Shown: positions 15,558 to 56,940, numbered from the stretch's first letter. The stretch: 64,000 nucleotides of DNA from an uncultured Verrucomicrobiae bacterium (GCA_963702845.1 OY969763.1:128001-192000); one strand, 5' to 3'. Notes: a model not told the origin generated them from the letters alone. Numbers and translations: made by a program.

Positions 15558-15569
15558 CTACGAACGATT

Positions 15570-16367
15570 ATGGCACTGAAGTTTAAGTTTAATTCCAAAA
15601 CCGAAATTCCGGCTGAGTTGGCTGCACATTATGTCGAGCGCGATGGCGCTTGGGTTTTGGACGCTGACGGCGATGCCGACAAGGTGTTAGCACACGGCCA
15701 CGATGCCCTCAAAGCCCGGCTGGATGAGTTTCGCAGCACAAACGTCACGCTGCTCAAACAGTTGGATGATCAGAAGAAACGTTTCGAGGGAATTGATCCC
15801 GACGAATTTCGCAAGCTCGCGGATGAAAAACGTCAGCTCGAAGAATCGCAACAACTGAAGGCGGGCGAGTTGGAGAAGGTGGTTGAGAATCGTGTGAAGG
15901 GTTTAAAGGCGGATTGGGACAAGCAACTTACCACGCTGACGTCGGAGCGCGATTCGCTGAACGGCCGGCTCACCGCGATTCAGATCGATCAAGGTGTGGT
16001 CGGTGCTGCGACGAAGCGGGGGCTTCGTGCGACTGCACTTACGGATATTACCTCGCGTGCGCGAAATGTTTTCAAGTTGGTCAATGGCGCGCCGCGCGCG
16101 TTTGAAGCCGATGGCGAGACGGTGCGTTACGGCAAGGATGGCGTGACGCCAATGACTTTGGAGGAGTGGGTGGATACGCAAGTGTCCGAAGCTCCTCACT
16201 TGTTTGAATCTAACGCTGGTGGCGGTGCTGCCGGCAACGGCTCCGGTGGAGCTGGTAATCGGTCCGTGAAAAACCCGTACCGCAAGGAGACGTGGAATCT
16301 CACGGAGCAAATGCACTTACAAAAAACTGATCCGAATCTCGCAGCGCGCCTCAAAGCCGCTGCGTGA
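15570..16367 (+). CDS. Capsid scaffolding protein
   Basis: MALK...YVERDG.WVLD, coiled coil, APHLF..GGG, NPYRKETWNLTEQ. Confidence 0.8.
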   Translation: MALKFKFNSKTEIPAELAAHYVERDGAWVLDADGDADKVLAHGHDALKARLDEFRSTNVTLLKQLDDQKKRFEGIDPDEFRKLADEKRQLEESQQLKAGELEKVVENRVKGLKADWDKQLTTLTSERDSLNGRLTAIQIDQGVVGAATKRGLRATALTDITSRARNVFKLVNGAPRAFEADGETVRYGKDGVTPMTLEEWVDTQVSEAPHLFESNAGGGAAGNGSGGAGNRSVKNPYRKETWNLTEQMHLQKTDPNLAARLKAAA

Positions 16368-16424
16368 AACAGGTCAATCCTCCTTCGCTAAAGCTATGGA
16401 GGATAAACCGGAGAAATAACGTTT

Positions 16425-17435
16425 ATGGCAAAGACAGCAGTGGCGGACATTATCATCCCCACAGAGTTTGAAAAATATGCGATCGAGCGCACCGCTGAAT
16501 TAGCGGCGTTCGGTGAGTGCGGCATTGTCGAGGCATCGCCTGAGTTCGATGCCATCGCTGCCGAAGGTGGACGCGAAGTTAAAATGCCGTTTTGGAAGGA
16601 CCTTTCCGCGACGCGTCAGCTTCTGAGCGATTCGGCAACGCTCGCCGTCAATAAAATCGGCACTGATCAGGATGTCGCGCGTATTCACAATGACGCGCAG
16701 GTCTGGTCTGTGAATCACCTGGCGAAAGTGATTTCAGGCGATGATCCGATGCAGGCGATTGTGGATCTGGTCGCGCAGTATTGGGCGCGCACGGATGAAG
16801 GTCTGGTCGTGTCGTGCCTCAAGGGTATGTTCGCGGCGGGTTCGATGGCGGGTAATCTTCTCGCGATTCATTCGGAGTCGGCGGCTGGCGCTGCTTCGTC
16901 GACGAAATTGACTGGTGCGACGTTCGTGGATGCTTGCGCGAAGTTGGGCGATCGTGCTGACCGGCTCACTGCCGTTGCGATGCACTCGGCGACTGAAGCC
17001 GCGTTGCGAAAGCTCGACCTGATCGACTTCATTCCTGACAGCCAGGGCAAGCCGCTCTTGCGCGTGTTCCAAGGTCGGCGCGTGGTTGTCGATGACAACT
17101 TGCCGACTCGGGCTGGCACGACTGATGGCACGGTCTACACGACGTATCTGTTCGGACAGGGTGCGTTTGCGAAAGGTTCGTCGAAACTCGATTCCACTCC
17201 GCTGCAAGGCGGTATGGGGACTGAAGGTGTCGAGATCGCACGCGTGCCCTTGGATAGCGATACGATTCTGATCAATCGTCGCCGCTATTTGCTGCATCCG
17301 CGGGGCGTGAAGTTTACCAGCGCTTCTGTTGCTGGCGATTCGCCCACGAATGCGGAATTGGAAACCGGCGCGAACTGGACCCGCGTTTGGGAAAACAAAA
17401 ACGTTCGCATCGTTGCGGTGACTCACAACAATTAA
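16425..17435 (+). CDS. Major capsid protein
   Basis: DIIIPTEF, MPFWKDL, DPMQAI, AMHS, LHPRG, SPTNAEL..NW.RV. Confidence 0.88.
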   Translation: MAKTAVADIIIPTEFEKYAIERTAELAAFGECGIVEASPEFDAIAAEGGREVKMPFWKDLSATRQLLSDSATLAVNKIGTDQDVARIHNDAQVWSVNHLAKVISGDDPMQAIVDLVAQYWARTDEGLVVSCLKGMFAAGSMAGNLLAIHSESAAGAASSTKLTGATFVDACAKLGDRADRLTAVAMHSATEAALRKLDLIDFIPDSQGKPLLRVFQGRRVVVDDNLPTRAGTTDGTVYTTYLFGQGAFAKGSSKLDSTPLQGGMGTEGVEIARVPLDSDTILINRRRYLLHPRGVKFTSASVAGDSPTNAELETGANWTRVWENKNVRIVAVTHNN

Positions 17436-17440
17436 CAAAC

Positions 17441-17484
17441 CGGGCGCCGACCCCGCACACCGAACGGTGTCGGGGTGGCGCTCC
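17441..17484 (+). terminator. Hairpin after the capsid gene
   Basis: GGGCGCCGACCCCG..CACCG-AA-CGGTG..CGGGGTGGCGCTC. Confidence 0.55.
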
Positions 17485-17506
17485 CCCTCTTAAGAAAGGA
17501 AATTTT

Positions 17507-17734
17507 ATGGGCAAGCTGATTCCCTGGGGTTCTGAAAAAATTCGGTCGGGTGAGGTCATTCAGATCCCGACGTTCACAAATGTTGCTGCTGCGAACGCTG
17601 CTGGCATTACTGCGGCAAAGTTTCCGCGACGCATTATTTATTTGAGCGCTGGCGGAACTGGTTCTGTGGCGTGCCTCGCAATTTCCGACGGCACGAATTG
17701 GAAACAAGTCGCCATTGGAGCGAACGCCATATGA
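17507..17734 (+). CDS. Small virion/decoration-like protein
   Basis: AAGGA RBS; follows the capsid gene; SDGTNW motif. Confidence 0.65.
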   Translation: MGKLIPWGSEKIRSGEVIQIPTFTNVAAANAAGITAAKFPRRIIYLSAGGTGSVACLAISDGTNWKQVAIGANAI

Positions 17735-17916
17735 ACCCGGCTCGTGACCAATTGTATCCGATCATCCGGCGCGTGCGACGGCCGCTGATTCCCACTGATG
17801 CCGGCACGGCTGCTCCTGCGGTCGTGCCGGCGAAAACGCCTGAGCCTGTCTCGCCTACGCAACCGTCAAAACCTGAAACAACAACAGATGCCCCGCCGAC
17901 GACCTCAGATGACTGA
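17731..17916 (+). CDS. Small hypothetical protein
   Basis: Overlap-coupled to both neighbours. Confidence 0.55.
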   Translation: MNPARDQLYPIIRRVRRPLIPTDAGTAAPAVVPAKTPEPVSPTQPSKPETTTDAPPTTSDD

Positions 17917-18664
17917 TGCGCTTCCAGTTTCGGCAAATGCCGCCGCGTGGTTTGCGATGCAGCAGCAGCGCCGTCGACGTCGCAATTCTTTGGCAGCTGG
18001 CGGACCAGCGCTGGCGAATGTGCCGGGTGATTGCGTGTTGCGTTTGAAAGCGAGCACACTGGATTTGGGTGATGATGATTCGATTGCGTTCTGGCCTGAT
18101 CTGAGCGGCAACGCAAATGACGTTTCGCAAATCACGGTTTCGCAACAGCCGACATTTCAGACAGTGACGTTCGCCGGGAAGACGTTTGCTGTTGCGCGTT
18201 TCGATACTGTCGATGATGGGATGGAGACGCCGGTCGTGATTTCTGGTGCGTTTTCGATTTTCACGTTGTGGAGGTTGGCCGATGCCGATGTGTTTAGCGG
18301 CGCGATTCTGTCGTCCGCTTCAGCCGACTGGACCGTGGGCAATATCAATGGGCAGATGCTTTGTTACTTCGAAGGATGGAGCGCAGCCGCATCTGTCAAT
18401 GATTCGGATTTTTATCTGGTGGAGGCACGCGTGGTTCCTGGGAGCAGCCCGCTCAATATTTATTTGAACGGCGTGCAGGTTGGGATGAGTGGCGGCGGCT
18501 CGGCGGTGCCGTATCAGGTGATGTTGGGAGCTTCGGGCAGTAACGGTTATCCGGGCAATTGCGATTGTGCGGAGATTCTTATTTACGATCGTTTTCTCTC
18601 GGACGATGAGGCGGCCGGCGTGCGCGCCTATTTCCAGGAGGAATACAACTACTTGAAGTTATGA
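17909..18664 (+). CDS. LamG/concanavalin-like lectin-fold virion protein
   Basis: WPDLSGNAN, FDTVDDGM, YLNG, AEILIYDR.LS. Confidence 0.75.
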   Translation: MTDALPVSANAAAWFAMQQQRRRRRNSLAAGGPALANVPGDCVLRLKASTLDLGDDDSIAFWPDLSGNANDVSQITVSQQPTFQTVTFAGKTFAVARFDTVDDGMETPVVISGAFSIFTLWRLADADVFSGAILSSASADWTVGNINGQMLCYFEGWSAAASVNDSDFYLVEARVVPGSSPLNIYLNGVQVGMSGGGSAVPYQVMLGASGSNGYPGNCDCAEILIYDRFLSDDEAAGVRAYFQEEYNYLKL

Positions 18665-18978
18665 GCGTGCGCTATCTCGTCATTATTCCCGCTGCGGATC
18701 AGTCGCAAGCAAATGCTCTGTCGAAATCAGAATTTGATTCTGATGGCGGTGAGAAAACTTTTTCGATTGGGTTGTCAGAAACGGGCAAACCTCCGGCTAC
18801 GCATTATTGGTGCTCGGCTTTGTTCTTTCGCACCGGTCCTGAACGTTTGCTTGCAGCTAAAGCGATTTTTCCTGACGCCGTCGTTGTGGACTACGACGGC
18901 GCAACGGATCCCGGGTTTCCGCAACGCACGATTGCGGAGCTCGGACTGAAACAAGTTGTGACTCTGCCGGATAGATAA
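18661..18978 (+). CDS. Hypothetical phage protein
   Basis: LS.TG..PATHYWC; overlap-coupled. Confidence 0.65.
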   Translation: MSVRYLVIIPAADQSQANALSKSEFDSDGGEKTFSIGLSETGKPPATHYWCSALFFRTGPERLLAAKAIFPDAVVVDYDGATDPGFPQRTIAELGLKQVVTLPDR

Positions 18979-18979
18979 T

Positions 18980-19564
18980 ATGGCGCTCGTTCTCGTCAAA
19001 GAAGATGGCACTGGATTGGCGAATGCGAATTCTTACGCGAGCGCTGCTGATGGTGACGCGTACCACGATGCGCATTTGTATGCAACGTCTTGGACGAGTG
19101 CGACGACGGCCAATAAGGAGAAGGCGCTGGTGTTCGCGACGCGGGTCATTGATTCGCAGTATCGGTTCCATGGAGTTCGCGCGGTCGCCGTGCAAGCGTT
19201 GCAGTGGCCGCGGTCCGATTGTCCCGATCCGGACGCTGCGCCGGATTCCAGTGGAATCGCGGTGTTTGCGAGCAATCAGGTTCCAACCGCTTTGATTAAC
19301 GCGACGTGCGAAATGGCGCGCGCCTTGTTGGCAGCAGATCGAACGGGTGCACCAGCTGGCGAGGGAATTGATACGACCCAGACGTCGGCCTCGAGCGCGA
19401 GTAAGGACGGAACTACGTCGAGCAGCGTCAGCAATAGTTCAATGATGCGATACAGCAAGGTGGATACGCGCCCGACCGTTTCGCAGGCGGCACAAGCGTT
19501 TCTGGCCAAGCTGGGCGATCTACCGGGTCGAGCGAGTGGCGCTGTTCAGCTGGTAAGAGTGTGA
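18980..19564 (+). CDS. Head-tail connector ('DnaT-like' phage family)
   Basis: EDGTGLANANSY, KEKAL..AT..ID, QALQWPR, VP..INATCEMA. Confidence 0.8.
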   Translation: MALVLVKEDGTGLANANSYASAADGDAYHDAHLYATSWTSATTANKEKALVFATRVIDSQYRFHGVRAVAVQALQWPRSDCPDPDAAPDSSGIAVFASNQVPTALINATCEMARALLAADRTGAPAGEGIDTTQTSASSASKDGTTSSSVSNSSMMRYSKVDTRPTVSQAAQAFLAKLGDLPGRASGAVQLVRV

Positions 19565-19574
19565 AAGGAGTTTT

Positions 19575-19895
19575 GTGACGAACATGAACACAACTGAGTT
19601 TTTGAAAGCGGTTGATCACGCGGCGGCGATGAATGACCGCTGGTTATTTTTGGCGGCGTTTTGCCTGCTGCTGTTGCTGTGCGGTGTGGTGATTTATTGG
19701 CTCGTGCGACAGTTGCAATCCCTGATCGCGGACCACAAGGAACTGCGCCACGAGCATCACGCGGCGCTGCAGGAAATCATCAACACACAAAATGAAACTT
19801 CGCTGAAGCTCGCGGTTTGTCTCGATCGGAACACGGCTGCGTTACAGGAGTGCAGTTTCGAACTTCGCAGATTTCAGGAGCAACGAGTTTTATGA
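19575..19895 (+). CDS. Single-TM plus coiled-coil protein (holin-like)
   Basis: One TM helix; late-gene position. Confidence 0.5.
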   Translation: MTNMNTTEFLKAVDHAAAMNDRWLFLAAFCLLLLLCGVVIYWLVRQLQSLIADHKELRHEHHAALQEIINTQNETSLKLAVCLDRNTAALQECSFELRRFQEQRVL

Positions 19896-20608
19896 AAAAG
19901 ACCATTATCTTATTTGCCGCGCTTGCAATTGTGGGTTGCAGCACAATTAAACCACTTAAGCCGGGCGTCGCGCGCATTCAATCGAATGTCGGGACGAACG
20001 GCATTCGCGAATTCGTCGCCGATTTGAAGCAGCCCGAGAATCCCGCGCAAAGCGCGACTCAGAATTTTGAACGCACGACAGAAACGGAGTTGCCGATCCC
20101 GGCGCAGAGCAGGGTGCAGGAAGTATTCATCACGCCGGCAGCGCAGCCTGGTGAGCAACCGGTGAAGCAGGAAAAGACGATCGTGCTGTCTGCGCCGACC
20201 GTACAAAAAACGCGAATCGTTGAGAAAGCTGGCACGATGATTGGCGCTGCGCAAAAAGACACGGCGCGAGAATTCGGCGCGAAGCTTGCCAGTTTGAAAG
20301 GTGTCGTTTGGGTTGGGCTTGGTTTGTTTCTGTTCGGACTGGCATCTCTATTCTATCCACCTCTGCGCGCAATTATTGGCAGCGTGACAACTAGCTTGGC
20401 GATGCTTGCCGGCGGCGTGTCGCTAATGGTGTTGCCGTCGCTGATCGTCGGGAATGAATTGCTGATTTTAGCTGTCGTGGCGCTCGGTGTCGGTGCTTGG
20501 TTTTTTGCGCATCGCCACGGGCAATTGCGTGGAACAGTGGACGCCCAAAATAAAACGAGTATGGCCGGTGCGGCGGAAGAGACCGTTTCGCGGCTGATGG
20601 CTAAATGA
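19892..20608 (+). CDS. Lipoprotein with three C-terminal TM helices (possible lysis protein)
   Basis: MKK...IVGC lipobox; hydrophobic C-terminus. Confidence 0.6.
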   Translation: MKKTIILFAALAIVGCSTIKPLKPGVARIQSNVGTNGIREFVADLKQPENPAQSATQNFERTTETELPIPAQSRVQEVFITPAAQPGEQPVKQEKTIVLSAPTVQKTRIVEKAGTMIGAAQKDTAREFGAKLASLKGVVWVGLGLFLFGLASLFYPPLRAIIGSVTTSLAMLAGGVSLMVLPSLIVGNELLILAVVALGVGAWFFAHRHGQLRGTVDAQNKTSMAGAAEETVSRLMAK

Positions 20609-20617
20609 AAGGTTTTT

Positions 20618-20965
20618 ATGCGAGATGAACAACATCGTTTCCTAATGTTAATGAGGCGACTTCCTGCGCGCCTCGACGTTGAGCAGGCCGGTTGGGTCCT
20701 TGGCTGTCAGAAGCATGACGTTCCGGCTCTCGTGGCCGCGCGTCTGTTGAAACCGCTGGGCAACCCTCCACCCAATGGGATCAAGTTCTTTGCGACCATG
20801 GATATTCTGGAGTTGATGGAAGATAAGGCCTGGCTCGCGAAGATGACGAACACGATCACGCAACATTGGTTTAGAAAAAATGCGCAGAGAAAAACCGGTG
20901 TCGTGAGCGCGCGTCGAAACGGCGCTGCTGGTTTGGACAGCATGGCGCCGGTTTCGAATAACTGA
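20618..20965 (+). CDS. Excisionase-like DNA-binding protein
   Basis: LPARL..EQAGWVLG..HD.P.LV...LLKPLG; convergent with the integrase. Confidence 0.6.
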   Translation: MRDEQHRFLMLMRRLPARLDVEQAGWVLGCQKHDVPALVAARLLKPLGNPPPNGIKFFATMDILELMEDKAWLAKMTNTITQHWFRKNAQRKTGVVSARRNGAAGLDSMAPVSNN

Positions 20966-20971
20966 CCGCGT

Positions 20972-22000
20972 TTACTGGTTTACCGCCATTGGGAGTGGAA
21001 CGATTTTCGACTCGTATTCTTCCAGGGATGGAACGATGACCTTTGCCTTCTTAGAGTAAGCGCGCGCAAACGCCTTTGAATTATGTCCGAGGGCCTGCTG
21101 TGCGTAGCGCTCGGGCATTCCGACAACCTTGGCACGTTCCGCCCATGCATAGCGGTAGCTGTGCAACGAAATGCCGCTGCCTTTTAGGGCGACCGTTTTG
21201 AGCCGCTTGATAAACATTTTCGCACGATGGTTCTCTTTGATGCGCGCGAGTCCCGGGAATAAATTGCCGACCTGCGGAAGCGAACGCAGAATGGCCGCTG
21301 CCTCTGGCCCGAAGGTGATTACGACAGGAACTCCCGTTTTGTTGCGTGAAAAAGAGATGGTGCGGTCCTGCCAATCAATGTCCTCGGCTTTCAGTTCGGC
21401 GATATCGGTTTGTGCGCCGCCCAAGTGCCACAACATTTGGTAATAGGCTTTGATCTCGGGGTTGAACTCGCGATTCAAAATTTGTGTGTGTTCGGCGAAC
21501 GTGATGGCACGACGTTCTTTGTGTTTAACGGCCGGCCATTGCAGCTTCGGAAGCACGGGCCAAGGTAGCCAGTGCATGCCGACGGCGAAATTGTGGAGCC
21601 GGCGGAGAAACATATTTGTCGAGGTACCGCCATTGCGGAGCACTTCAAAAAAATGTTCGCCGGTAGTTTCCATCAACTTGCGACTGCGAATCGTGTCGAA
21701 GGCTTTGTCGAGAATCGCGTGCTTCCATCGCTCCTGGGTTGGGCCGGTCTTGAGCGGCGTCATTTGATCCATCACGTGCTGCCATGTGCGCGCCGAGAGT
21801 GCGGAGTCGCTGTGCTTCAAATAAACCTGCGCGATCTGCAGGTTCATCGAGGCGTTGCGGACGGCCTCGTTTTTGATGTCGGTCAGCCGTTGGGCTTCGT
21901 CTGCGTTGTTGGTTTTGAGGCTCTCGCGTTTCTTGGTTTGAGTGTCGAAGCAATAGTAAGCGTCCCGCTTTCCCCGGTAGATTAATCGATAGCGCTTCAT
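20972..22000 (-). CDS. Tyrosine recombinase/phage integrase
   Basis: LHSYRY, ALGH...AY catalytic motifs; adjacent to a tRNA. Confidence 0.9.
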   Translation of the reverse strand: MKRYRLIYRGKRDAYYCFDTQTKKRESLKTNNADEAQRLTDIKNEAVRNASMNLQIAQVYLKHSDSALSARTWQHVMDQMTPLKTGPTQERWKHAILDKAFDTIRSRKLMETTGEHFFEVLRNGGTSTNMFLRRLHNFAVGMHWLPWPVLPKLQWPAVKHKERRAITFAEHTQILNREFNPEIKAYYQMLWHLGGAQTDIAELKAEDIDWQDRTISFSRNKTGVPVVITFGPEAAAILRSLPQVGNLFPGLARIKENHRAKMFIKRLKTVALKGSGISLHSYRYAWAERAKVVGMPERYAQQALGHNSKAFARAYSKKAKVIVPSLEEYESKIVPLPMAVNQ

Positions 22001-47583: not shown

Positions 47584-47592
47584 AACGACTGT

Positions 47593-47691
47593 GGTTAACG
47601 AAAAAAACTGAGCCACGCCGGGCAACTGACGTCAGCCGCGAAAGCGGAGCTGCCAACGCCAACCGGCGTTGGCTCAAGCGTCTGGTTAAGC
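47593..47691 (-). other. attC site
   Basis: + strand GGTTAAC..TGAGCCACGCCGG/CCGGCGTTGGCTCA..GTTAAGC with an extrahelical base; cassette stop within R''. Confidence 0.85.
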
Positions 47692-47979
47692 TGCATGCGG
47701 CCTCCGCTCGGATGAGCCACGAAGAGCGCGACGAATACCAAGGACAAACAATCCAAAGGCGATAAGGACTACAGCTGAAATCAAGACGTCAGGGACGCGC
47801 CCGTACCCGCCACCAAAAAACCATAACGTGCTACTTTTAACGTGAGCGAATCCGTAATCGGAACCGCGGATGGTTACCGTAGCGTATCCCTGAAATCGCC
47901 CCAGCCAATACCGGCATGAAACGCCAAAGAATCCCGCTCCAACCAAGAGGAGTAGCCACTTAGATTGTTTCGGATTCAT
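47686..47979 (-). CDS. Cassette: two-TM protein
   Basis: Fills the interval between attC sites. Confidence 0.7.
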   Translation of the reverse strand: MNPKQSKWLLLLVGAGFFGVSCRYWLGRFQGYATVTIRGSDYGFAHVKSSTLWFFGGGYGRVPDVLISAVVLIAFGLFVLGIRRALRGSSERRPHAA

Positions 47980-47990
47980 ATCTTGTTCAG

Positions 47991-48083
47991 CAATAACCCC
48001 AAAGCTCAGCGGCGACGGGCCACTGACTCGAGGATTGTAAACGCAGCGTCGAACCGCCGTCCGCCGAAGCGCTATTGTTAGCC
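47991..48083 (-). other. attC site
   Basis: CAATAAC..GCGGCGACGG/CCGTCCGC..GTTAGCC. Confidence 0.75.
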
Positions 48084-48120: not shown

Positions 48121-48642
48121 TCACTTCGCCCGCTCCGCCGCCCTCATATCCGCCTCCGCAATCTTCTCAACATAAAACTGCCCTCGCGCCTTCAGCTTGG
48201 TCGCCCACGATTCCCTGTCGCCGCCTCCACTACGGACATAACAATCGTAACCTAACACTGCTGCATACTGATCTTCCGTCTGCTCCATATTCCGCTCGCA
48301 CCATTTCAAAACCGCTGGCCGATACTTGTCATTGATATGCCTTGAAAACTCCGTCGCCAGCGAAAGATCAAAATCGTTCTTTTCCGAATCTGCGGCCACA
48401 ACTAACTTCTGCCAATCCGCATCCGTCGGCTGCCGGCCCGCCTCCAACGCCTCAAATGCCCGATTCCTCGCCTCGACATTCTCAATTATCCAGCCCTGCT
48501 TTTGGGCAATGGCCTGTAACATCCGCTCGCTTGGATGCGAAAAATCCGACCTCTGACCCGAAGTCTCCTGCACCTGCTTGCCACAACCAATCAATAGCCC
48601 CGCCACTATCGCCGCAACAATTGGAACCATGCGAAATTTCAT
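48121..48642 (-). CDS. Cassette: lipoprotein
   Basis: LIGC lipobox. Confidence 0.75.
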   Translation of the reverse strand: MKFRMVPIVAAIVAGLLIGCGKQVQETSGQRSDFSHPSERMLQAIAQKQGWIIENVEARNRAFEALEAGRQPTDADWQKLVVAADSEKNDFDLSLATEFSRHINDKYRPAVLKWCERNMEQTEDQYAAVLGYDCYVRSGGGDRESWATKLKARGQFYVEKIAEADMRAAERAK

Positions 48643-48655
48643 AAAATCTGGATGC

Positions 48656-48754
48656 TGCTAACGTCCAGAGCTCAGGCACGCGGGACCAAAAACCGTGAAC
48701 CGCGAAGCGGAGCTGAGAGCGCCATCCCGCGTTGCCTGCAGAGATTTGTTAGAT
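48656..48754 (-). other. attC site
   Basis: TGCTAAC..CAGGCACGCGGGA/TCCCGCGTTGCCTG..GTTAGAT. Confidence 0.85.
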
Positions 48755-48982
48755 CTCTGGTTCATGTCTCCTCAACTCTCGAAGCAAACGCACCTCACTC
48801 GATCCGTCCTCATACTCGACGAGATACTTCTGCTCTGGATGCGGGGCTTCCGGTGAAATAACCGAAGCGACAGCTCCGCGTCTCGCTCCTCCAATAACTG
48901 TCACCATATCGTTGACCACGAGCGGCAACGCCTCACTTCTTTTGCCTTCGTAAAATGCTTGGCGCATGGCTTCAGTAATCAT
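48749..48982 (-). CDS. Cassette: small SH3/KOW-like protein
   Basis: ND.V.V.GG...G...V....YLVEY.DGS; stop within R''. Confidence 0.7.
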   Translation of the reverse strand: MITEAMRQAFYEGKRSEALPLVVNDMVTVIGGARRGAVASVISPEAPHPEQKYLVEYEDGSSEVRLLRELRRHEPEI

Positions 48983-48992
48983 GTCCGGTGAG

Positions 48993-49189
48993 GTCTAACT
49001 ATGATTATGCGACACACTGTCGCAGTAATTTCGATATGCGAACGGTTGGTTCATATTGGTTGAGCAGACTATTGTTCTGCTGCCGCTGCGAAGCAAGCGC
49101 AACTGGGCGCGCTCGCGAGCACGGCGACGACATGCCGGAGATCCGCGATTGGAAGTGGAGCGCGTAGGGAAAGGGCAGAGCAGTTTAAC
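48993..49189. repeat. Family-A repeat copy 1 (attI-like site + arm + xfp-like 3' end)
   Basis: gtctaactatgattatgcgac...; 49117-49167 encodes EHGDDMPEIRDWKWSA*. Confidence 0.9.
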
Positions 49190-49274
49190 GCCCCGGGTCA
49201 GGCAGGCCGGGGCAAAGGTGTTCGATTGCAAACAGAGACGCGATCCCGGCCTTGCCTGCAGCGACTTGCTAGGG
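49183..49274 (-). other. attC site (R'' variant)
   Basis: GTTTAAC..CAGGCAGGCCGGG/CCCGGCCTTGCCTG..GCTAGGG. Confidence 0.75.
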
Positions 49275-49640
49275 TGCATTTGTGATGTTGATAGATACAA
49301 TGTTGATGCCATTGCTTTGAATATGTGCTGCCTGCAATAAACCGTCTCTCCATGCTCCATCCGGTCTAAATCGCTTCGGCTTAATGTCCAGACCTAGACT
49401 GCATCCGCGTGACAATGGGAAAAAATGAGACCAACCAAAACTGTCTCCAGCGCTTAGGCCGTCCTTAAAACCGTGATGCACTAAATATTTCGTCGCGTCA
49501 TCTTCTCGCATCCCAAAGGTCAGTTTCGATGCGATCTTAACCGCCTGTGCTTGGGTGAACTGGTTTGTCGCCGTCTGCGCTTCTGTGAGGTTCGTAAAAG
49601 CGAGAAGCACTAAACAACATATTGCTGAAATCGTTCTCAT
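49269..49640 (-). CDS. Cassette: secreted protein
   Basis: Signal peptide; stop at the attC edge. Confidence 0.75.
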   Translation of the reverse strand: MRTISAICCLVLLAFTNLTEAQTATNQFTQAQAVKIASKLTFGMREDDATKYLVHHGFKDGLSAGDSFGWSHFFPLSRGCSLGLDIKPKRFRPDGAWRDGLLQAAHIQSNGINIVSINITNAP

Positions 49641-49643
49641 GCA

Positions 49644-49857
49644 CCCTAACTATGCTTACGCGACGGGGTGTCGCGGTGATTTTGATATACGAACGGTTGG
49701 TTCATATTGATTGAGGAGACTATTGTTCTGCGGTCGCTGCGAATCAAGCGCAACAAAACGCGCTTGACCTCACCTTGGGCCTTTGAGCACGGCGACGACA
49801 TGCCGGAGATCCGCGATAGGAAATGGAGTGCGTAGGGAAAGGGCGAAGCAGTTTAAC
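49644..49857. repeat. Family-A repeat copy 2
   Basis: 49785-49835 encodes EHGDDMPEIRDRKWSA*; short insertion in the arm. Confidence 0.9.
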
Positions 49858-49949
49858 GAAAAAAGCTGAGCCACCGCCGACTCGTGGCGTGAACCGTGAT
49901 AGCGGAACGGACAGCGCCAACGGCGGCTGGCTCCGGCGATTTGTTAGAC
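49851..49949 (-). other. attC site
   Basis: GTTTAAC..GAGCCACCGCCG/CGGCGGCTGGCTC..GTTAGAC. Confidence 0.85.
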
Positions 49950-49955
49950 TCGTGG

Positions 49956-50297
49956 CTACTTCTTTGGAACACCAACTCCATATACCTCCAGAATCCCACC
50001 TTCGCCGCCAGTTTTAAGTATCAAGTAACCGCCTGTCTGCTCTGACCTCCATATATCGTATTCCACAATATCCAATCCGGTGGGATGGGGCACCCGATAC
50101 TTCTCAAAGGTCGCCAGCTTCTCAATCTCTGACAGGTCTTGATAATGTAATTTCTGGAGGCCGCTGGTATGCGACACGGATGACGCAGTGAAACGCTCAT
50201 CAAGAATCTTCTGCATCTCCTTCGAAGGCTTGGCATCGGCCGCATAGGCGAACATTCCGCATAAAAGAACAACGACAAAACAGGTGAGAGGTTTCAT
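49956..50297 (-). CDS. Cassette: secreted protein
   Basis: Signal peptide ending AYA. Confidence 0.75.
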   Translation of the reverse strand: MKPLTCFVVVLLCGMFAYAADAKPSKEMQKILDERFTASSVSHTSGLQKLHYQDLSEIEKLATFEKYRVPHPTGLDIVEYDIWRSEQTGGYLILKTGGEGGILEVYGVGVPKK

Positions 50298-50301
50298 ACG
50301 A

Positions 50302-50476
50302 GTCTAACTATGATTATGCGACGGGGTGCCGCGGTAATTTTGATATACGAACGGTTGGTTCATATTGGTTGAGGAGACTATTGTTCTGCGGCCGCTGCGA
50401 ATCAAGCGCAACAAAACGCGCTCGCGAGCACGGCGACGACATGCCGGAAATCCGCGATTGGAAATGGAGTGCGTAA
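50302..50476. repeat. Family-A repeat copy 3
   Basis: 50426-50476 encodes EHGDDMPEIRDWKWSA* with a TAA stop. Confidence 0.9.
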
Positions 50477-50494
50477 GGGGGAATTAGTCGGTCC

Positions 50495-50983
50495 TTACTT
50501 TCGATTTGCGTCTAGGCGGAAGGGTTGGCTTCCGTACGCTGGACCGCTTGGTTCGCCCGTCTTCGGATCTTTTTTGATGACAAGAGAAACATAATATTTG
50601 TCGGTTGGACGGATTGGATATGAATGGACACCCCACGCGTCCTTCAAATCGTCCACCCATAAACCAAAACCTTCAGCCCCGCCATGAAACTCAATTACCA
50701 TGTGGTCGGAATGCACATACACGCCAACCGGTTTTAATTCGACAATAGATAGCGGCAAGTTTGTTAGACCACTCCCCTTATAATAAATTTCATTTGTCGG
50801 CGACCGGCTAATCACGCAACTCGCACTGCGGATGATTTCCGCGCAGTCCACGGTTCTCAGAACCTTGTGGAAGTGCCACTGCTTGGGCAGGGAATACCAG
50901 AGCCCGCTTACTGTGAGAATACCTGTCAGGACCACACAAAGTCCGAGAAAAATGCCGAGTGGAATTTTTACGATGTTTTTCAC
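50495..50983 (-). CDS. Cassette: membrane-anchored protein
   Basis: N-terminal TM; C-terminus appears to read into a truncated attC (GGCGAAC...). Confidence 0.7.
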   Translation of the reverse strand: MKNIVKIPLGIFLGLCVVLTGILTVSGLWYSLPKQWHFHKVLRTVDCAEIIRSASCVISRSPTNEIYYKGSGLTNLPLSIVELKPVGVYVHSDHMVIEFHGGAEGFGLWVDDLKDAWGVHSYPIRPTDKYYVSLVIKKDPKTGEPSGPAYGSQPFRLDANRK

Positions 50984-50992
50984 GGAGACTTT

Positions 50993-51052
50993 GGCCTACC
51001 AATTTATCTGCGACAACTGTTCGCATAGTTTTAATCGGCGAACAAGGGTTTT
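50993..51052 (-). repeat. Family-B attI-like site
   Basis: TGTTCGC-13nt-GCGAACA inverted repeat; aligns with the 8382 and 55450 copies. Confidence 0.8.
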
Positions 51053-51128
51053 TGGGGTTGTCCTAAAAGCTGTCAAACGGGGACTGGGGTATGTGGTTGC
51101 TGATGGCTGCAGCGCTTGGTTAGACGTC

Positions 51129-51437
51129 TTACGAGTAATGTGCGGTAATGCCAGCATAAGTCAGTGTGACGAAGAACGCGATAAAGACTCCAGCCTCAAC
51201 CCATATTCTCGTCCGAAGCGTTTTCTTGCGAACGATGAAACGAGCAACGGTAGCGGTGATAAAATAAACACACGCTGCTACAAAGCCAATAACCATGAAG
51301 CCGATGATAAATCCAAACTCCTGCTGTCCGTCTCCAGGATACTGCTCTCCCCACTGTAAGTGGGAGAACGGCAAAGCGACGGCAACGCCGACCGTTAGCA
51401 GAACCCGAAGTAGCGCAAGCAAGACGTGGCGTTTCAT
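51129..51437 (-). CDS. Cassette: three-TM protein
   Basis: GTCTAAC R'' follows the stop (51120-51126). Confidence 0.7.
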   Translation of the reverse strand: MKRHVLLALLRVLLTVGVAVALPFSHLQWGEQYPGDGQQEFGFIIGFMVIGFVAACVYFITATVARFIVRKKTLRTRIWVEAGVFIAFFVTLTYAGITAHYS

Positions 51438-51456
51438 GGTGAGATGCGCGAATGAC

Positions 51457-51507
51457 ACCTAACAGTTGAGCTCGGGAGGTTTCACACAGGCTCGCGATTT
51501 GTTAGGC
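51457..51507 (-). other. Short, internally deleted attC
   Basis: ACCTAAC...GTTAGGC, 51 bp. Confidence 0.6.
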
Positions 51508-51925
51508 CAAGATTGTTGCATGTGCGGAGTCTGCCTGAACTACGACAATGGCGCCGGACATGAACTCGATGGCATTCAAAGCAAGCGGTTGAGCAGTCAT
51601 CCTCTCGTCGCAAATCATTAGGGAACCCTCTCCAGTCCTCGTCCGTCCAGTAGCCGAAATTACGCAAGCAATCGTCCTCAGTGAACGGAAGCCCAGAACG
51701 ACGAGGCAGAAACCGAAACTCGGTAACGCCTGAAAACTCGATCGTAGATGACGCTGGCAGACTGTTACGGACGCCCTCGCGCTCAGAACGTCGCCACAGC
51801 AACAACAGAGTCCGCTGGGCCACTGAGTAACGCAATTCTTGGAAGTCATAGTCATTGTGGAGATCAAGTTCGTGTGGCGGTTGAACAAGATAGATTCCCA
51901 TGTTGACTGTGAAATTGCGGCGCAT
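51502..51925 (-). pseudogene. Cassette gene frameshifted near 51630
   Basis: N-part ...GYWTDEDW in one frame; C-part IEFMSGAIVVVQA..ILA* ends in R''. Confidence 0.6.
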
Positions 51926-51934
51926 GGCAGTTGG

Positions 51935-52060
51935 CTCTAACGATCAAGCTCAGCCACAGCCGGGAAACTGCAGCAACGACTGCAGGTCTGACAATCTAAT
52001 TTCATATCCCGATCCAAAACAAGGTGGCCTACGGCTGGTGGCTGAAGCGCCTTGTTAAGC
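51935..52060 (-). other. attC site
   Basis: CTCTAAC..TCAGCCACAGCCG/CGGCTGGTGGCTGA..GTTAAGC. Confidence 0.85.
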
Positions 52061-52408
52061 GCTTCGCCTCTTTGTCCTGCGCCGCCCAACGCCGCGTGAC
52101 CCCCCTAATGCCGGGGCAATCTGTTTGTACGCGTATACTATGAGGCCGCCAATGATAAAAGGACTTACCCCCTCAACTGCCAACTTTACGTGTGCTTGGG
52201 AAAGGGAGCCTCGCTCCTTTTCGTAAACCTCCTTCCACTTGTCTCTGTATTCCTTGTGATACCTGGTCTCGGTAGCAATTTCTTGAAATGCAACGGAGTA
52301 AAGTCCGGCGGTCACAAGCAGAGGTACGACCGCCAGACATATCAAGGTAAGGAATCCTAAGAAAGCTCCATAAACGCCAGAGCGCCCAAAGAAAAAAATG
52401 AGAATCAT
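52055..52408 (-). CDS. Cassette: membrane protein
   Basis: Stop within R''; TM segments. Confidence 0.65.
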   Translation of the reverse strand: MILIFFFGRSGVYGAFLGFLTLICLAVVPLLVTAGLYSVAFQEIATETRYHKEYRDKWKEVYEKERGSLSQAHVKLAVEGVSPFIIGGLIVYAYKQIAPALGGSRGVGRRRTKRRSA

Positions 52409-52485
52409 GCAATGCTCCAAACGCGATGCGAAAGTCCTCGCCGCCTCTCCGCATAAATGAACGATTGCGCATTCACAGTGATGGC

Positions 52486-52700
52486 GCCCAACTATGATTA
52501 TGCGACGGGGTGTCGCGGTCATTTTGATATACGAACGGTTGGTTCATATTGGTTGAGGAGATTATTGTTATGCTGGCGCTGCGAAGCAAGCGCAACACAA
52601 CGCGCTCGCGAGCACGGCGACGACATGCTGGAGATTCGCGATTGGAAATGGAGTGCGTAGCGCGGGCATCACCGAGAACAGCGTGCAGGTGACGATTATT
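52486..52700. repeat. Family-A repeat copy 4
   Basis: 52610-52660 encodes EHGDDMLEIRDWKWSA*; downstream 40 bp shared with 54889-54929. Confidence 0.9.
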
Positions 52701-53064
52701 TAAGGGGTGGCTGATCGTTCGGAGAAGCCTCCGATTTGACTGCTTCAGCAGCAACGGAACTGTGTGCATTCAGAACAGGACGGACCAGAAGAACAATGCC
52801 GATGCACCAAGAGATGAGGTCGGCGAAGTACATCAAACGCCGAAACGTCCGGGTGACGATATAGTTTGGATCGCCCATCGGTTGCAGGCTAACGGTGTGG
52901 TCGTAAACCGTATCGATGATACCGAGCACGCACGCAATGGCGATGAAGATGAAAGCTTTATTCCGAGTCCGCTTGAACGCTGGATAAACGTGACATAACA
53001 CGATTGCATCGACAGCGATTGTTAGCACAAGGCTGAGGTGCGACAGGAATCTGAGCCAGATCAT
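52696..53064 (-). CDS. Cassette-like three-TM protein
   Basis: Hydrophobic helices; lies between family-A copies. Confidence 0.7.
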   Translation of the reverse strand: MIWLRFLSHLSLVLTIAVDAIVLCHVYPAFKRTRNKAFIFIAIACVLGIIDTVYDHTVSLQPMGDPNYIVTRTFRRLMYFADLISWCIGIVLLVRPVLNAHSSVAAEAVKSEASPNDQPPLK

Positions 53065-53144
53065 ATAGTGGTTAGGAGACTATTGTTCTGCTGCCGCTGC
53101 GAATCAAGCGCAACACAACGCGCTTGACCTTGGGCCTTGGGCAC
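53061..53144. repeat. Family-A partial copy (arm only)
   Basis: ggagactattgttctgctgccgctgcgaatcaagcgcaac...; ends at gggcac where the xfp-like tail would begin. Confidence 0.85.
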
Positions 53145-53279
53145 AAACGCGGCGTTCCCATGACGCTGTTTGAGTCCCAGTGTTATCATGGGCCGGGAAT
53201 CGGTATCCATGGCCTGGTTTTTTGCAAGGCGGTCGCGCCGGTCGGGTTTTGCGCGCGTATCGTTGAGCCCTCCGCTTTG

Positions 53280-53363
53280 TCCGTTGTTCCCAACGCTCGC
53301 TCCGTTATCTCCAACGCCGGCTCCGTTGGGTTCAACGCCCACTCCGTTAGCCCCAACGATGCC
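53280..53363. repeat. Four 21-bp degenerate tandem repeats
   Basis: TCCGTT-N5-CAACG-N5, four times. Confidence 0.8.
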
Positions 53364-53373
53364 ACCGTTGACT

Positions 53374-53411
53374 ACTGATAGGAAATTGCTTTTTGACGCT
53401 GGCGCGGTTAA
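53374..53411 (+). repeat. 38-bp direct repeat, copy 1 (copy 2 at 54816-54853)
   Basis: actgataggaaattgctttttgacgctggcgcggttaa identical in both. Confidence 0.9.
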
Positions 53412-53438
53412 GTCTGCCCCTGCTAATCATTTTGTTTT

Positions 53439-54281
53439 CTACTCATCTTGATCATTGATGTACCAATAAAGAAGGAGGTTCGTGACTTCGTTTGCCTTCA
53501 CGCCTGAGTTCTTCTTCCTGATTTCTGAAAATAGCGCGATAAACTTGGCATTGGTGAAAAGAAGCTCGGCCGTGCCGGCCTGAGGTACAACCAGCAAACG
53601 ACCATCAAAGCCTTCGTCCGTTGTCGCGCCGACGGGATGAGCAATCAGCCGCCGATCTTTACCCGCTGATGTTGTCCAATCAGCCGGATGAACAACCCGT
53701 CTCCCGTCTTTTCCCTCGTCCCATATCCAGCCAGGAGGGCAAGCCACACGCCTGCCGTCGCCCCCCTCCTCCCACGACCAACTGTTCGGTCGGATAATTC
53801 GCCTGCTGTCAAATCCGTCCTCCCAGGTCCAACTGACGGGCCGAACGACTCGGCGACCATCTTCTCCCTCGTCCCATGTCCAACTCGCAGGACGAACCAC
53901 ACGCCCATCCAGTCCCTGCTCATAGTCCCAGCTTTTGGGCCGCACCACGACCCTGCCGCCTGGCCCCAGTTCCCAGGTCCAGTCCGCTGGGCACGCGACC
54001 AACCGGCTGTCGAGCCCCTGCTTTAAGTGCCAATTCGTCGGGTAAGCAATCATCCTCAAATCTCCCCCTTGTCCGTTTGTCCATCCTGCCGGCAGTAGAA
54101 CCTTTCGGCCATCCCTGCCTTCGATAACGCCCGGAGCCTTCGCAAACCGGATGCGGACAATTAAACTGGTTGGATCGGAATCGTTCGCAGATTGTGCGTA
54201 AAGAGAGACCGAGGTGAAACAGACCGCGATGAGGACGCGACTGCAATATCTGGCGATACGGCCAATGAGTGTGGGTTTCAT
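53439..54281 (-). CDS. Secreted protein with about ten 17-aa Trp/Gly repeats
   Basis: Signal peptide; PxxWxWxxGxDGRxVxx repeats. Confidence 0.8.
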   Translation of the reverse strand: MKPTLIGRIARYCSRVLIAVCFTSVSLYAQSANDSDPTSLIVRIRFAKAPGVIEGRDGRKVLLPAGWTNGQGGDLRMIAYPTNWHLKQGLDSRLVACPADWTWELGPGGRVVVRPKSWDYEQGLDGRVVRPASWTWDEGEDGRRVVRPVSWTWEDGFDSRRIIRPNSWSWEEGGDGRRVACPPGWIWDEGKDGRRVVHPADWTTSAGKDRRLIAHPVGATTDEGFDGRLLVVPQAGTAELLFTNAKFIALFSEIRKKNSGVKANEVTNLLLYWYINDQDE

Positions 54282-54440
54282 TTGACTAGTATTTGAATAT
54301 CTGACGAGTGCGGGGCGGGGAAACTTCAAAACTTGTCGGTAGATGACAAACAGTCGCCGCGGCCGATCGCGTGATGAGCTTTAGTTGTTTCCGCGCGCTC
54401 GCCACCCGTAATCCCGACATAAATGTGAACGGGAACCACG

Positions 54441-54512
54441 GACTCGCACAGACGAACACGGACTTACACGGACTTACACGGACTTACACGGACTTACACG
54501 GACTTACACGGA
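54441..54512. repeat. 10-bp tandem repeat
   Basis: GACTTACACG five perfect copies (54461-54510) plus degenerate flanks. Confidence 0.95.
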
Positions 54513-54692
54513 GCCGAACGTCGGCATCCAATCGGGCTACCTTCATTCTGTATCTCGGGACGGTGGGCCGCGACGATTTCTGTCAGGAACTGATAAAATT
54601 CAAAAGCCTGAAGTATCCATAACGCTCCGGGCTTTATGTGCGATGGTAAAAAAGTTCTTTTGCCGATTGGGACTGGTGAGAGGTTTGGTTGA

Positions 54693-54816
54693 GTGAGCGC
54701 TGAATCGCATAAGTATAGGCTGAACGCCGTTCTGGCCGCCACTATCCTCGGGTCGAGCATGGTGTTTATCGACTCGACGGTCGTGAATGTCATCCTGCCG
54801 CGGCTTCAATCGGAAA
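54693..54816 (+). pseudogene. 5' fragment of an EmrB/QacA-type MFS transporter
   Basis: VLAATILGSSMVFIDSTVVNVILP, cut by the 38-bp repeat. Confidence 0.75.
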
Positions 54817-54852
54817 CTGATAGGAAATTGCTTTTTGACGCTGGCGCGGTTA

Positions 54853-54930
54853 ATGCCGGAGATCCGCGATTGGAAGTGGAGTTCGTAGCGCGGACATCAT
54901 CGAGAACAGCGTGCAGGTGACGATTATTTG
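54853..54930. repeat. Family-A partial copy (xfp-like tail plus downstream)
   Basis: Encodes MPEIRDWKWSS*. Confidence 0.85.
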
Positions 54931-54990
54931 AGCGGTGAACGCGATCTACGAACCACCACATCTCCGGTGAAATGTTAGGGTCCGACGAAT

Positions 54991-55449: not shown

Positions 55450-55508
55450 GTCCTAACAACTAATTCGCGCCAATAGTTCGCACATTTTTAATCCGCGAAC
55501 AAGGGTTT
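55450..55508 (-). repeat. Family-B attI-like site with an intact GTTAGG core
   Basis: Minus strand ...gcgcgaattagttGTTAGGAC, a few bases before the ATG. Confidence 0.8.
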
Positions 55509-56276: not shown

Positions 56277-56291
56277 ACGTTATGGAGCGTT

Positions 56292-56356
56292 GCCCAACGT
56301 TTCAGCTCAGCCACAGCCGACTCATGACGTGCACCGCGACAGCGGAACGGACAACC
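56292..56356 (-). other. Truncated attC (R' half)
   Basis: GCCCAAC..CTCAGCCACAGCCGACTC..AGCGGAACGGACA resembles attC 49851-49949. Confidence 0.7.
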
Positions 56357-56380
56357 CATTTGGGAGTTTATTACACAACG

Positions 56381-56408
56381 TTGACACGCCGTAGCTTCCC
56401 CTTATAAT
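56381..56408 (+). promoter_or_regulatory. Consensus sigma-70 promoter
   Basis: TTGACA-16nt-TATAAT. Confidence 0.55.
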
Positions 56409-56940
56409 CCCTTAAGCCGCCGGTCCTTGCCGGCGCTGGGGATCGTCAAAAATGTGCAACTTTCCCCGGTTCGTTCTTTGAAAACTGCACTAAAAGTGCG
56501 ACTTAATTCCCACCAAAAGTGCAAGAATGTGCGGGAATGTGGGGCAATGTGTGACAATGTGCGACTTTCCCGTGATGTTTTCTTCCGGAGTCAGCATTGC
56601 GAGGCCGACGTTCGGCCTTTGACAAAAGTAGAAGCATTTCCTTCTACAAAGTTTCTCCACTTGGCAACTAATTGCCGGAAGTAGTAGGAAGTTGCAACAT
56701 TTCGATGATATTTTTTGATTCGGCTGCTTAAGCCGCGGACTGATTGTAACGCCAAGACACGGCGCGGCCAAGCCGCAACCGAAGTCGAGGGGTCGAAGGT
56801 CGAAAGTCGAGAGCCAAAAGCGATCCGATAGCCCATTGGAAGAATTTTGCCAAAAATGCTCAACTTTTGCAGATAGCACTGTGAAAAGACGCAGAGACAG
56901 GTTTGGAAAAGGAATGCTGCGAGCAGGCGGCGCTAGATAT

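Follow-up and report, generated by a model that had tools for sequence, protein, structure and literature searches.

A repeated module of xfp-derived and core-site sequence in the integrase-less cassette arrays of an uncultured Verrucomicrobiae bacterium

The cassette array and its genomic setting

The DNA considered here is a stretch of 64,000 nucleotides (nt), in the following called the window, from an uncultured Verrucomicrobiae bacterium (GCA_963702845.1) whose genome consists of one contig of 6.03 Mb (OY969763.1, here C1; the window is C1:128001-192000). The minus strand of the window carries a gene cassette array at 47.6-56.4 kb. Within this array a short repeat recurs which combines the 3′ end of the phosphoketolase gene xfp (part B′) with a second sequence ending in a GTTRRRY core (part A′). 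Coordinates without prefix refer to the window.

Read on the minus strand from 56.4 to 47.6 kb, the array is made up of short, unidirectional open reading frames (ORFs) separated by imperfect palindromes of the type GTCTAAC...GTTAAAC. A Pfam search with 15 of the array ORFs gave no hit above the curated cut-off. The palindromes were described by a covariance model of attC (R1) built from eight local sites, six of the window and two from elsewhere in the genome; it replaced two home-made attC finders that were too strict (0 and 1 sites), and the sensitivity of BLAST with attC seeds was too low. R1 detects 44 attC sites in the genome at E ≤ 0.01, 36 of them outside the training set; the model is trained on this genome's own attCs, and the strong hits of the window are training members. 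Six strong hits, all on the minus strand, lie between 47590 and 52062. Across the genome the R1 sites cluster in the same places as the copies of the repeat, and cassette arrays or isolated attC hits occur at about 18 places, with IS elements in or near the arrays. In addition, 37 copies belong to a second class of attC, which is shorter (family D9). Applied to relatives, R1 found 10 sites in five of eight loci with a true or near-true intI gene, on the side and strand expected for cassettes, and the intI-adjacent attC of a same-family relative is nearly identical in sequence to the site at 49848-49950. Rfam, searched with 46.5-57.5 kb and hits accepted up to E = 1, returned no match.

An integron integrase (IntI), presupposed for the host in a preliminary description of this stretch, was not found in the genome. 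No frame scores above 85.9 bits with TIGR02249, the cut-off being 265, and the two best frames look XerC/D-like; among 41 genomes, a count which includes this one without IntI, seven possess an IntI above the cut-off. The window encodes a single tyrosine recombinase, at 20972-22000 on the prophage side. Since attC arrays are present and IntI is missing, the arrays, including that at 47.6-56.4 kb, are clusters of attC sites lacking integron integrases (CALINs) as defined for IntegronFinder in the portion of Cury et al. (2016; PMC4889954) used here, the criterion being at least two close and co-oriented attC sites.

The repeat and its xfp-derived part

A repeat search returned a family of 170 nt with four copies at 48997, 49648, 50306 and 52490, which match the reference copy at 73-100% identity. 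At 53074 the A part recurs in a fifth, partial copy, and at 54853 lies a partial B part with 91% identity over 85 nt to 52625-52709; these are the four full and two partial copies of the ~190-bp repeat on which the preliminary description was based. A 26-nt probe taken from the xfp-like block met five sites at ≤3 mismatches, compared to 0.00 expected from 100 shuffles, and BLAST of the repeat against the whole genome gave 38 pieces. The repeat units are ~650 nt long and contain one small ORF of no known family and no integrase. In cassette orientation, each copy consists of B′ followed by A′.

The plus-strand block 49117-49167 encodes EHGDDMPEIRDWKWSA*, which had been recognised as the C-terminus of an XFP phosphoketolase. 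This assignment is borne out by the genome itself: its single full xfp gene, a frame of 808 amino acids, ends in ...HYIREHGDDMPEMRDWKWSA* (XFP_C of Pfam, 345 bits), and 15 of 16 residues of the encoded peptide agree with this end. As had also been supposed, the gene lies outside the window (C1 ~2198661-2201090). Elsewhere the genome contains eight more, scattered fragments of XFP_C, covering profile positions from 125-202 down to 172-202. In cassette orientation B′ reads as the 3′ end of xfp in reverse complement, from the stop codon on, and the copies carry 36, 51-54, 67-71, 128, 158 or ~235-260 nt of xfp. Their identity to the xfp of this genome amounts to 92-100%, whereas the xfp tails of relatives are 81-91% identical to the window copy. 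Hence, the B′ copies are home-made pseudogene scraps, and sequence comparison establishes their origin from xfp.

A native spacer of 15-16 nt beside the xfp stop codon is kept in 10 of the 23 B′ copies, namely at the xfp locus and in nine others (seven arrays or loci). In all ten the mutual similarity stops at the 7-mer core of an attC, and the attCs upstream of it differ. This anatomy, with one boundary at a core site on the B′ side and another at the end of A′, defines the module as it can be read from the sequence. B′ itself is most likely a passenger scar.

At the commonest xfp/A′ junction (52601-52616 and 50417-50432, minus strand) a terminator-like hairpin arises, with a T-rich run behind it in cassette direction. 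A hairpin of A′ on the opposite strand also scores as terminator-like, towards xfp.

The A′ part and its core

A′ comprises ~115 nt ending in a GTTRRRY core and is present within arrays in ~29 copies in the genome, at about one quarter of the cassette junctions. The cores of the window copies are GTTAGAC, GTTAGGG or GTTGGGC and stand 3-13 nt ahead of a cassette ORF on the minus strand; across the genome GTTAGAC, GTTAGGC, GTTGGGC and others are found, and beyond GTT(A) the copies are no longer conserved. In all 29 cases an ORF of 50 or more amino acids begins 0-18 nt downstream of the core. The same holds for 732 of 3000 random positions and for 102 of 399 other GTTAGRC sites. For attC sites an ORF follows within 1-49 nt in 38 of 44.

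Six diverged copies retain only the 3′ ~62 nt of A′. This portion forms two small hairpins, with loops more variable than stems, followed by TAATCATAGTT. The 3′ portion of the second-class attC is similar to it (score 32, compared to a shuffle mean of 12.9 with a standard deviation of 5.5; reached by 1 of 1000 shuffles), whereas for the 5′ remainder of A′ no likeness to this attC was seen, its score being reached by 355 of 1000 shuffles. A′ shares the R′ core GTTRRRY with attC sites but not their paired-end hairpin. Judged by its sequence, the last ~62 nt of A′ are a conserved cassette-boundary site which is not a canonical attC. The GTTRRRY-type core that had been noticed at one end of the repeat behaves as a cassette boundary, and the proposed coupling of such a site with attC cassettes holds as well.

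Sequences related to A′ were sought in several collections. The A part was found in none of 40 relatives, neither beside xfp nor elsewhere. A 23-nt invariant stretch of A′ has no exact match in the genome and metagenome contig collections, and a 21-nt stretch of its upstream extension none in the genome contig collection. Distant BLAST searches of A′ against plasmids, including class 1 integrons, gave no match, and the intI loci of relatives share only chance words of 9-17 nt with A′ or its extension. Furthermore, cassettes were sought that follow A′ at one site and an ordinary attC at a different one. As the A′-borne cassettes are nearly all unique, this comparison was uninformative for pinning the crossover.

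The xfp locus and its platform copies

At the xfp locus the order on the plus strand is extension, A′ (C1 2198078-2198188), an ORF of 114 amino acids, attC, GTTAGAC, a 15-nt spacer and the xfp stop codon. Here A′ precedes B′, whereas the repeat reads B′-A′, and the repeat is thus a circular permutation of the boundary between array and xfp. The attP-like geometry described earlier is in agreement with this arrangement.

In a same-genus relative purH begins ~60 nt past the stop codon of xfp. Here the two genes are 16 kb apart, the intervening DNA starting after the stop codon and containing a small and a large terminase, a PHROG-family protein, an IS110-family element, a 1241-amino-acid Ig-domain protein and more A′/B′ modules; genes of 206 and 292 amino acids adjoin A′ in this insertion. 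No copy of the xfp tail was found at the purH side of the insertion, where the native intergenic sequence resumes. Compared to two same-genus genomes, xfp is diverged evenly up to the stop codon, with 67-89% identity in each 100-nt bin except the last, incomplete one. The 15-nt spacer resembles by eye the post-stop sequence of the other same-genus genome and is therefore probably native flank.

Two dispersed copies of the platform at the xfp locus exist, e1 (C1 5448167-5449627) and f (C1 5709908-5708895). The flanks of the xfp locus, e1 and f are 96-98% identical on both sides, but the DNA enclosed by the A′ core and the attC R′ core is unrelated among them (444, 318 and 478 nt, respectively). 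Homology among the three ends ≤4 nt from the A′ core. Such unrelated inserts in shared flanks are what cassette replacement at two core sites would leave, and by this comparison the platforms suggest A′ as a boundary at which cassettes may have been exchanged.

Copy e1 ends 12 nt past the stop codon of an intact LuxR-type response-regulator gene, which stands directly beside it at C1 about 5449.64-5450.33 kb. The 206-amino-acid gene (C1 2197050-2197670) has paralogs at C1 1298174, 2347159, 2662529, 1356361 and 5434624, and the family is divergently paired with a conserved upstream region containing GTTTGTGCCAAAGGCCCAAGG. The downstream side of this region was examined at three loci: A′ stands there at the xfp locus, a second-class attC with cassettes at the 1298 and 2346 loci. 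Between the 206-amino-acid gene and the GTTTGTGCCAAAGGCCCAAGG region lie ~230 nt that are rich in hairpins and tandem-like. The gene, which stands beside A′, was considered as a recombinase and rejected: it belongs to no Pfam or PHROG family, and its atlas neighbours are hypothetical, the nearest named one being fn3-like at 0.89.

Organisation of the array in the window

All features of the array are encoded on the minus strand and are given here from its downstream end. The last attC (47590-47692, R1 79.8 bits, a training member) is of the type that adjoins intI in relatives. At rising coordinates follow cassette ORFs of 97 amino acids without Pfam family (47686-47979) and of 173 amino acids (48121-48642), separated by an attC at 47988-48083 (77.1 bits), and, behind the attC at 48653-48755 (77.3 bits), an ORF of 77 amino acids (48749-48982) which starts 10 nt past an A′ core. 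This core, GTTAGAC, forms the low-coordinate end of A′ copy 1 (48993-49103). The accompanying B′ copy 1 (49114-49167), which holds the final 54 nt of xfp in reverse complement with the stop codon included, is 98% identical to the xfp locus and borders on the native 15-nt xfp 3′ spacer and the R′ core GTTAAAC of the preceding attC (together 49168-49189). That attC (49180-49275, 78.1 bits) adjoins an ORF of 123 amino acids (49269-49640), which is headed by A′ copy 2 with the core GTTAGGG (49646-49754). An additional piece at 49763-49790 represents the extra 5′ extension found upstream of A′ at the xfp locus; B′ copy 2 (49785-49835) carries xfp 1-51 and is preceded, in cassette direction, by an attC (49848-49950, 82.2 bits) and then the native spacer.

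The next cassette ORF, of 113 amino acids (49956-50297), stands behind A′ copy 3 (50302-50412, core GTTAGAC), whose B′ copy 3 (50423-50475) is preceded by neither an attC nor the native spacer. Beyond it lie an ORF of 162 amino acids (50495-50983) and the 3′ part of a short second-class attC of family D9 (50995-51056); the unit 50306-51051 is duplicated at C1 4310128-4310874 with 96% identity. An ORF of 109 amino acids (51129-51458), a short site taken as attC-like from its fold and a weak R1 match (51454-51508, 10.7 bits, E 0.43), an ORF of 147 amino acids (51482-51925), a long-form attC (51932-52062, 70.2 bits) and an ORF of 118 amino acids (52055-52411) lead to A′ copy 4 (52490-52596, core GTTGGGC) and B′ copy 4 (52607-52660). 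The latter abuts a scar of the LuxR-type response-regulator gene, i.e. its last 47 nt (AGITENSVQVTII*; 52659-52704), which are 96% identical to the intact gene at its 3′ end. An ORF of 122 amino acids (52696-53064) is followed by a truncated A′ of which only the 5′ half is left (53065-53114), together with a long upstream extension (53065-53286). The truncated B′ at 54853-54888 (36 nt) is cut by a 38-nt repeat also seen at 53374-53411, and a second response-regulator tail follows at 54887-54933. A short second-class attC (D9, 55452-55508) and a degenerate attC at the upstream array end (56289-56390), the latter read from its sequence with an R1 score of only 7.6 bits (E 2.5), complete the array.

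Some further repeats and gene fragments were observed in this region. The response-regulator tail scar also occurs at C1 1731422-1731455 and 4310072-4310124. A fragment of 133 nt at 54683-54815 is 93% identical to the 5′ end of an MFS-transporter-like gene, the full copy of which is located at C1 ~2390756. The 38-nt direct repeat is identical at 53374-53411 and 54816-54853, where its two copies flank a 1.4-kb segment with a 296-amino-acid repeat protein (53439-54329) and a 10-nt tandem repeat (54437-54522) and one copy cuts a B′ module; ~14 further copies exist in the genome. A ~220-nt repeat at the upstream array end (56342-56600; ~20 genome copies, 73-89% identity) may be a miniature inverted-repeat transposable element (MITE) or a REP-like element.

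An IS110-family element of 1.68 kb has six copies with 95-100% identity, one of them at C1 2185922-2187604. In the copies whose flanks were examined one end lies inside an attC site, a habit of the IS1111-attC group, and two copies adjoin B′ modules. It was rejected as driver of the module: the examined copies sit in attCs, and the ends of the module are not set by the element.

The orientation of the arrays follows the replichores. Between 0.17 and 1.83 Mb they occupy the minus strand and between 2.29 and 4.31 Mb the plus strand, and cumulative GC skew is lowest at ~4.75 Mb and highest at ~2.21 Mb; most cassette coding strands therefore run against fork movement. The xfp island (2.19 Mb) and sites beyond 4.8 Mb do not follow this rule throughout. 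Elsewhere in the window a prophage segment (~13950-22000) with a portal-like DUF4055 protein, scaffold, capsid and DnaT-like protein ends with the tyrosine recombinase mentioned above. About 25 kb of housekeeping genes, among them a sigma-70 factor, ABC transporters and a NiFe hydrogenase with its maturation genes, part the prophage from the array.

Origin and spread of the module

An alignment of 11 copies with xfp revealed at least four junction types, which differ on the xfp as well as on the A′ side. One of them can be obtained from a longer type by removing what lies between two GTTGCG words, and the shortest, in which xfp 1-54/56 is joined to AGCGCG..., is common to ~10 copies. For 22 of the 23 full A′ copies a nearest relative is found in another array, and among the 20 copies located elsewhere than in the xfp island 15 have an xfp-island copy in their nearest set. 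The relationships are star-like with the source region in the centre, a pattern which at the level of sequence demonstrates spread from array to array.

In our preferred reading, to which we give about an even chance, an ORF-less, cassette-like spacer module consisting of a dead xfp 3′ fragment and a boundary site was captured and spread between integrase-less arrays. The process would have started from an A′-headed cassette slot abutting the xfp stop codon (A′-core-cassette-attC-core-spacer-xfp). A segment spanning the boundary between array and xfp would then have been circularised, or tandemly duplicated and looped out, by which an internal point of xfp was joined to the DNA upstream of A′. 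Recombination at GTT cores could have delivered it to other arrays as core-spacer-B′-A′-core, usually as the leader of the next cassette, and microhomology deletions may have trimmed the xfp/A′ junction to the common form of 175 nt. The enzyme might be an IntI that has since been lost or one acting in trans. The circular intermediate and the recombinase, like any present-day role as entry site or internal promoter, are what we infer from these structures.

Several observations weigh against this capture and spread of a spacer module. A recombinase for the process is missing in the genome, neither a circle nor a polymorphism was observed, and all evidence comes from one genome. DNA folds of the module on both strands show local hairpins only, with unpaired ends (z-scores -2.1 and -1.1), and R1 on A′ gives at best 8 bits (E=2), in one of the four window copies. 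The platform copies e1 and f are permuted like the xfp locus and were therefore not inserted through the core site. Moreover, 13 of the 23 B′ copies lack the native spacer, and their similarity ends within ~3 nt of the xfp stop codon. To their left stand the 47-nt response-regulator tail (52659-52704, 54887-54933 and two sites elsewhere), a 20-nt alternative spacer (5-6 related copies) or the end of the 162-amino-acid ORF (two related copies). A breakpoint recurring at the stop codon is unpredicted by random deletion and hints at a second specific breakpoint; of all that is left, it argues best for a specific event at this position, as had been proposed earlier.

That proposal saw in each junction the attachment site of a tiny non-autonomous element whose attP carries the xfp tail and which, served by an integrase in trans, would integrate at the 3′ end of xfp, rebuild its tail and pile up in tandem. 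The similarity of the 13 spacer-less copies, which ends at or near the stop codon in differing contexts as at a crossover, agrees with this model, as do the circular permutation of the xfp-locus order at the A′-B′ junction, the second host-gene tail (response regulator) stacked likewise, and nine tyrosine-recombinase frames that the genome contains besides the XerC/D-like ones. However, an integration with tail restoration should be visible at xfp, where the far, purH-side end of the 16-kb insertion has no tail duplicate and the divergence from relatives is even up to the stop; the DNA after xfp in relatives is ordinary and unrelated. Accretion at xfp is likewise at odds with the location of 22 of 23 B′ copies away from the gene, inside cassette arrays, and the carried xfp length varies from 36 to 260 nt together with the A′ side and the junction, as deletions would produce. 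Thus, the peptide, the core, the geometry and the coupling given in the preliminary description stand, whereas integration, tail restoration and accretion at xfp are not supported, and we consider the model improbable as a whole.

Variable junctions on both sides can also be explained without any site-specific step, as scars of repeated unequal or illegitimate recombination at a hotspot of accessory genes which were scattered later. Prophage remnants (the terminases and the PHROG-family protein) in the xfp-purH insertion and other host-gene fragments in the array, i.e. the response-regulator tail and the MFS 5′ end, would suit such a history. It accounts poorly for boundaries that fall on 7-mer cores in 10 of 10 spacer-bearing copies and all three platform copies, for nearest relatives that lie in other arrays in 22 of 23 cases, and for arrays whose attCs are of the type used by IntI in relatives, and we hold it to be quite unlikely. 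Very unlikely, in our view, is a MITE-like nature of the ~175-nt form, inserting beside cassette starts by means of a transposase encoded elsewhere. The ~10 copies which share one internal junction in at least five different left contexts, and the subterminal hairpins near one end, are reminiscent of such elements, but the ends of the module are unpaired, so that terminal inverted repeats are missing, and no target duplication was seen in the 23 left and 29 right contexts read. The longer forms grade into the xfp locus itself, and no copy stands outside of cassette-array or platform contexts.

Possible functions of A′

Compatible with the capture and spread of the module is the idea that A′ is kept as an internal expression module for promoter-less cassettes, providing a promoter and perhaps a leader ORF of 19 codons which ends in the TAG of the core. 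A′ always stands 0-18 nt upstream of an ORF, and the short ORF MNQPFVYQNDRDTPSHNHS* is open in all 30 copies that keep its start, with its stop at or next to the core in 22 of them. Most of the gene-less cassettes of Vibrio arrays tested in the part of PMC11014356 drawn on here showed activity as promoters on the sense strand. A sigma-70 consensus scan of the cassette strand, on the other hand, detected no site in any A′ copy; according to the same part of that work, in-silico prediction fails for the promoters of such cassettes. There is also no Rfam match to the A′ region, and the variable sites of the short ORF fall on codon positions 1, 2 and 3 in 10, 15 and 11 cases, so that a coding-type constraint on the leader ORF is not apparent. 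An expression role is tentative and, on balance, somewhat unlikely.

Likewise somewhat unlikely is the view of A′ as a portable cassette-entry site, i.e. an attI-like site turned cassette, whose ~29 copies would each open an insertion point inside an array, as in the stacked 'mini-integron' units of the preliminary description. If true, it would be a natural and datable case of an integron packaging host DNA into a new mobile cassette, and it would bear directly on how cassettes are made. If the module is only a fossil, it is a well-documented curiosity of array decay.

Independent of its function, the module touches a problem that is still unexplained, the origin of integron cassettes, by presenting a way in which the flanking DNA of an array can become packaged and be copied in the manner of a cassette. 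A piece of the organism's own housekeeping gene came to lie between two cassette cores and was copied to at least ten array places, and as the source locus and longer, intermediate forms persist, the conversion of flanking DNA into a cassette-like unit is readable step by step. Furthermore, a site other than attC can mark cassette boundaries at roughly one quarter of the junctions in a genome of the Verrucomicrobiota type, and annotation tools based on attC may miss boundaries of the A′ type.

Comparison with known systems

Like other CALINs, the arrays described here consist of unidirectional short ORFs of no known function, separated by attC sites, without intI and with IS elements in or near them. 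They differ in that about one quarter of the junctions bear a conserved module made of a host-gene fragment and a non-attC boundary site. Among the origins of CALINs listed in the portion of Cury et al. (2016; PMC4889954) considered here are loss of intI, rearrangement, insertion at secondary sites and an 'unknown mechanism creating novel cassettes'. In a limited search of the literature on CALINs, attC and Verrucomicrobia, on integrons and phosphoketolase and on ORF-less cassettes, no such module was found described.

Gene-less cassettes, as far as the consulted part of PMC11014356 describes them, are likewise short non-coding units bounded by cores, located between cassettes and upstream of promoter-less ORFs. 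The known ones end in a normal attC, whereas here the end is A′, which does not fold as an attC, and the module holds a pseudogene scrap of a housekeeping gene of its own genome.

With attI platforms A′ shares a non-palindromic site ending in GTTRRRY, a first cassette starting at TT, and different cassettes in otherwise identical platforms. The putative likeness of the core end to attI1, noted in the preliminary description, spans about a dozen bases. Unlike attI, A′ has no adjacent intI and is present in ~29 copies inside arrays instead of one at their head; its neighbour at the xfp locus and the copies of this locus is the 206-amino-acid protein and not a recombinase, and BLAST detects no similarity of A′ to plasmid sequences including class 1 integrons. 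Insertion of cassettes at secondary GTT sites was reportedly described by Recchia and co-workers in 1994 and by Recchia and Hall in 1995.

Genomic islands and cis-mobilisable elements target the 3′ ends of genes and accrete there in tandem, for example the ICESt-type elements at fda. The module resembles them by the repetition of a host-gene 3′ end at unit boundaries and by its head-to-tail stacking. It is set apart from them by units that do not lie at the target gene, by a missing tail duplicate at the far end and a missing integrase, and by the varying length of the tail.

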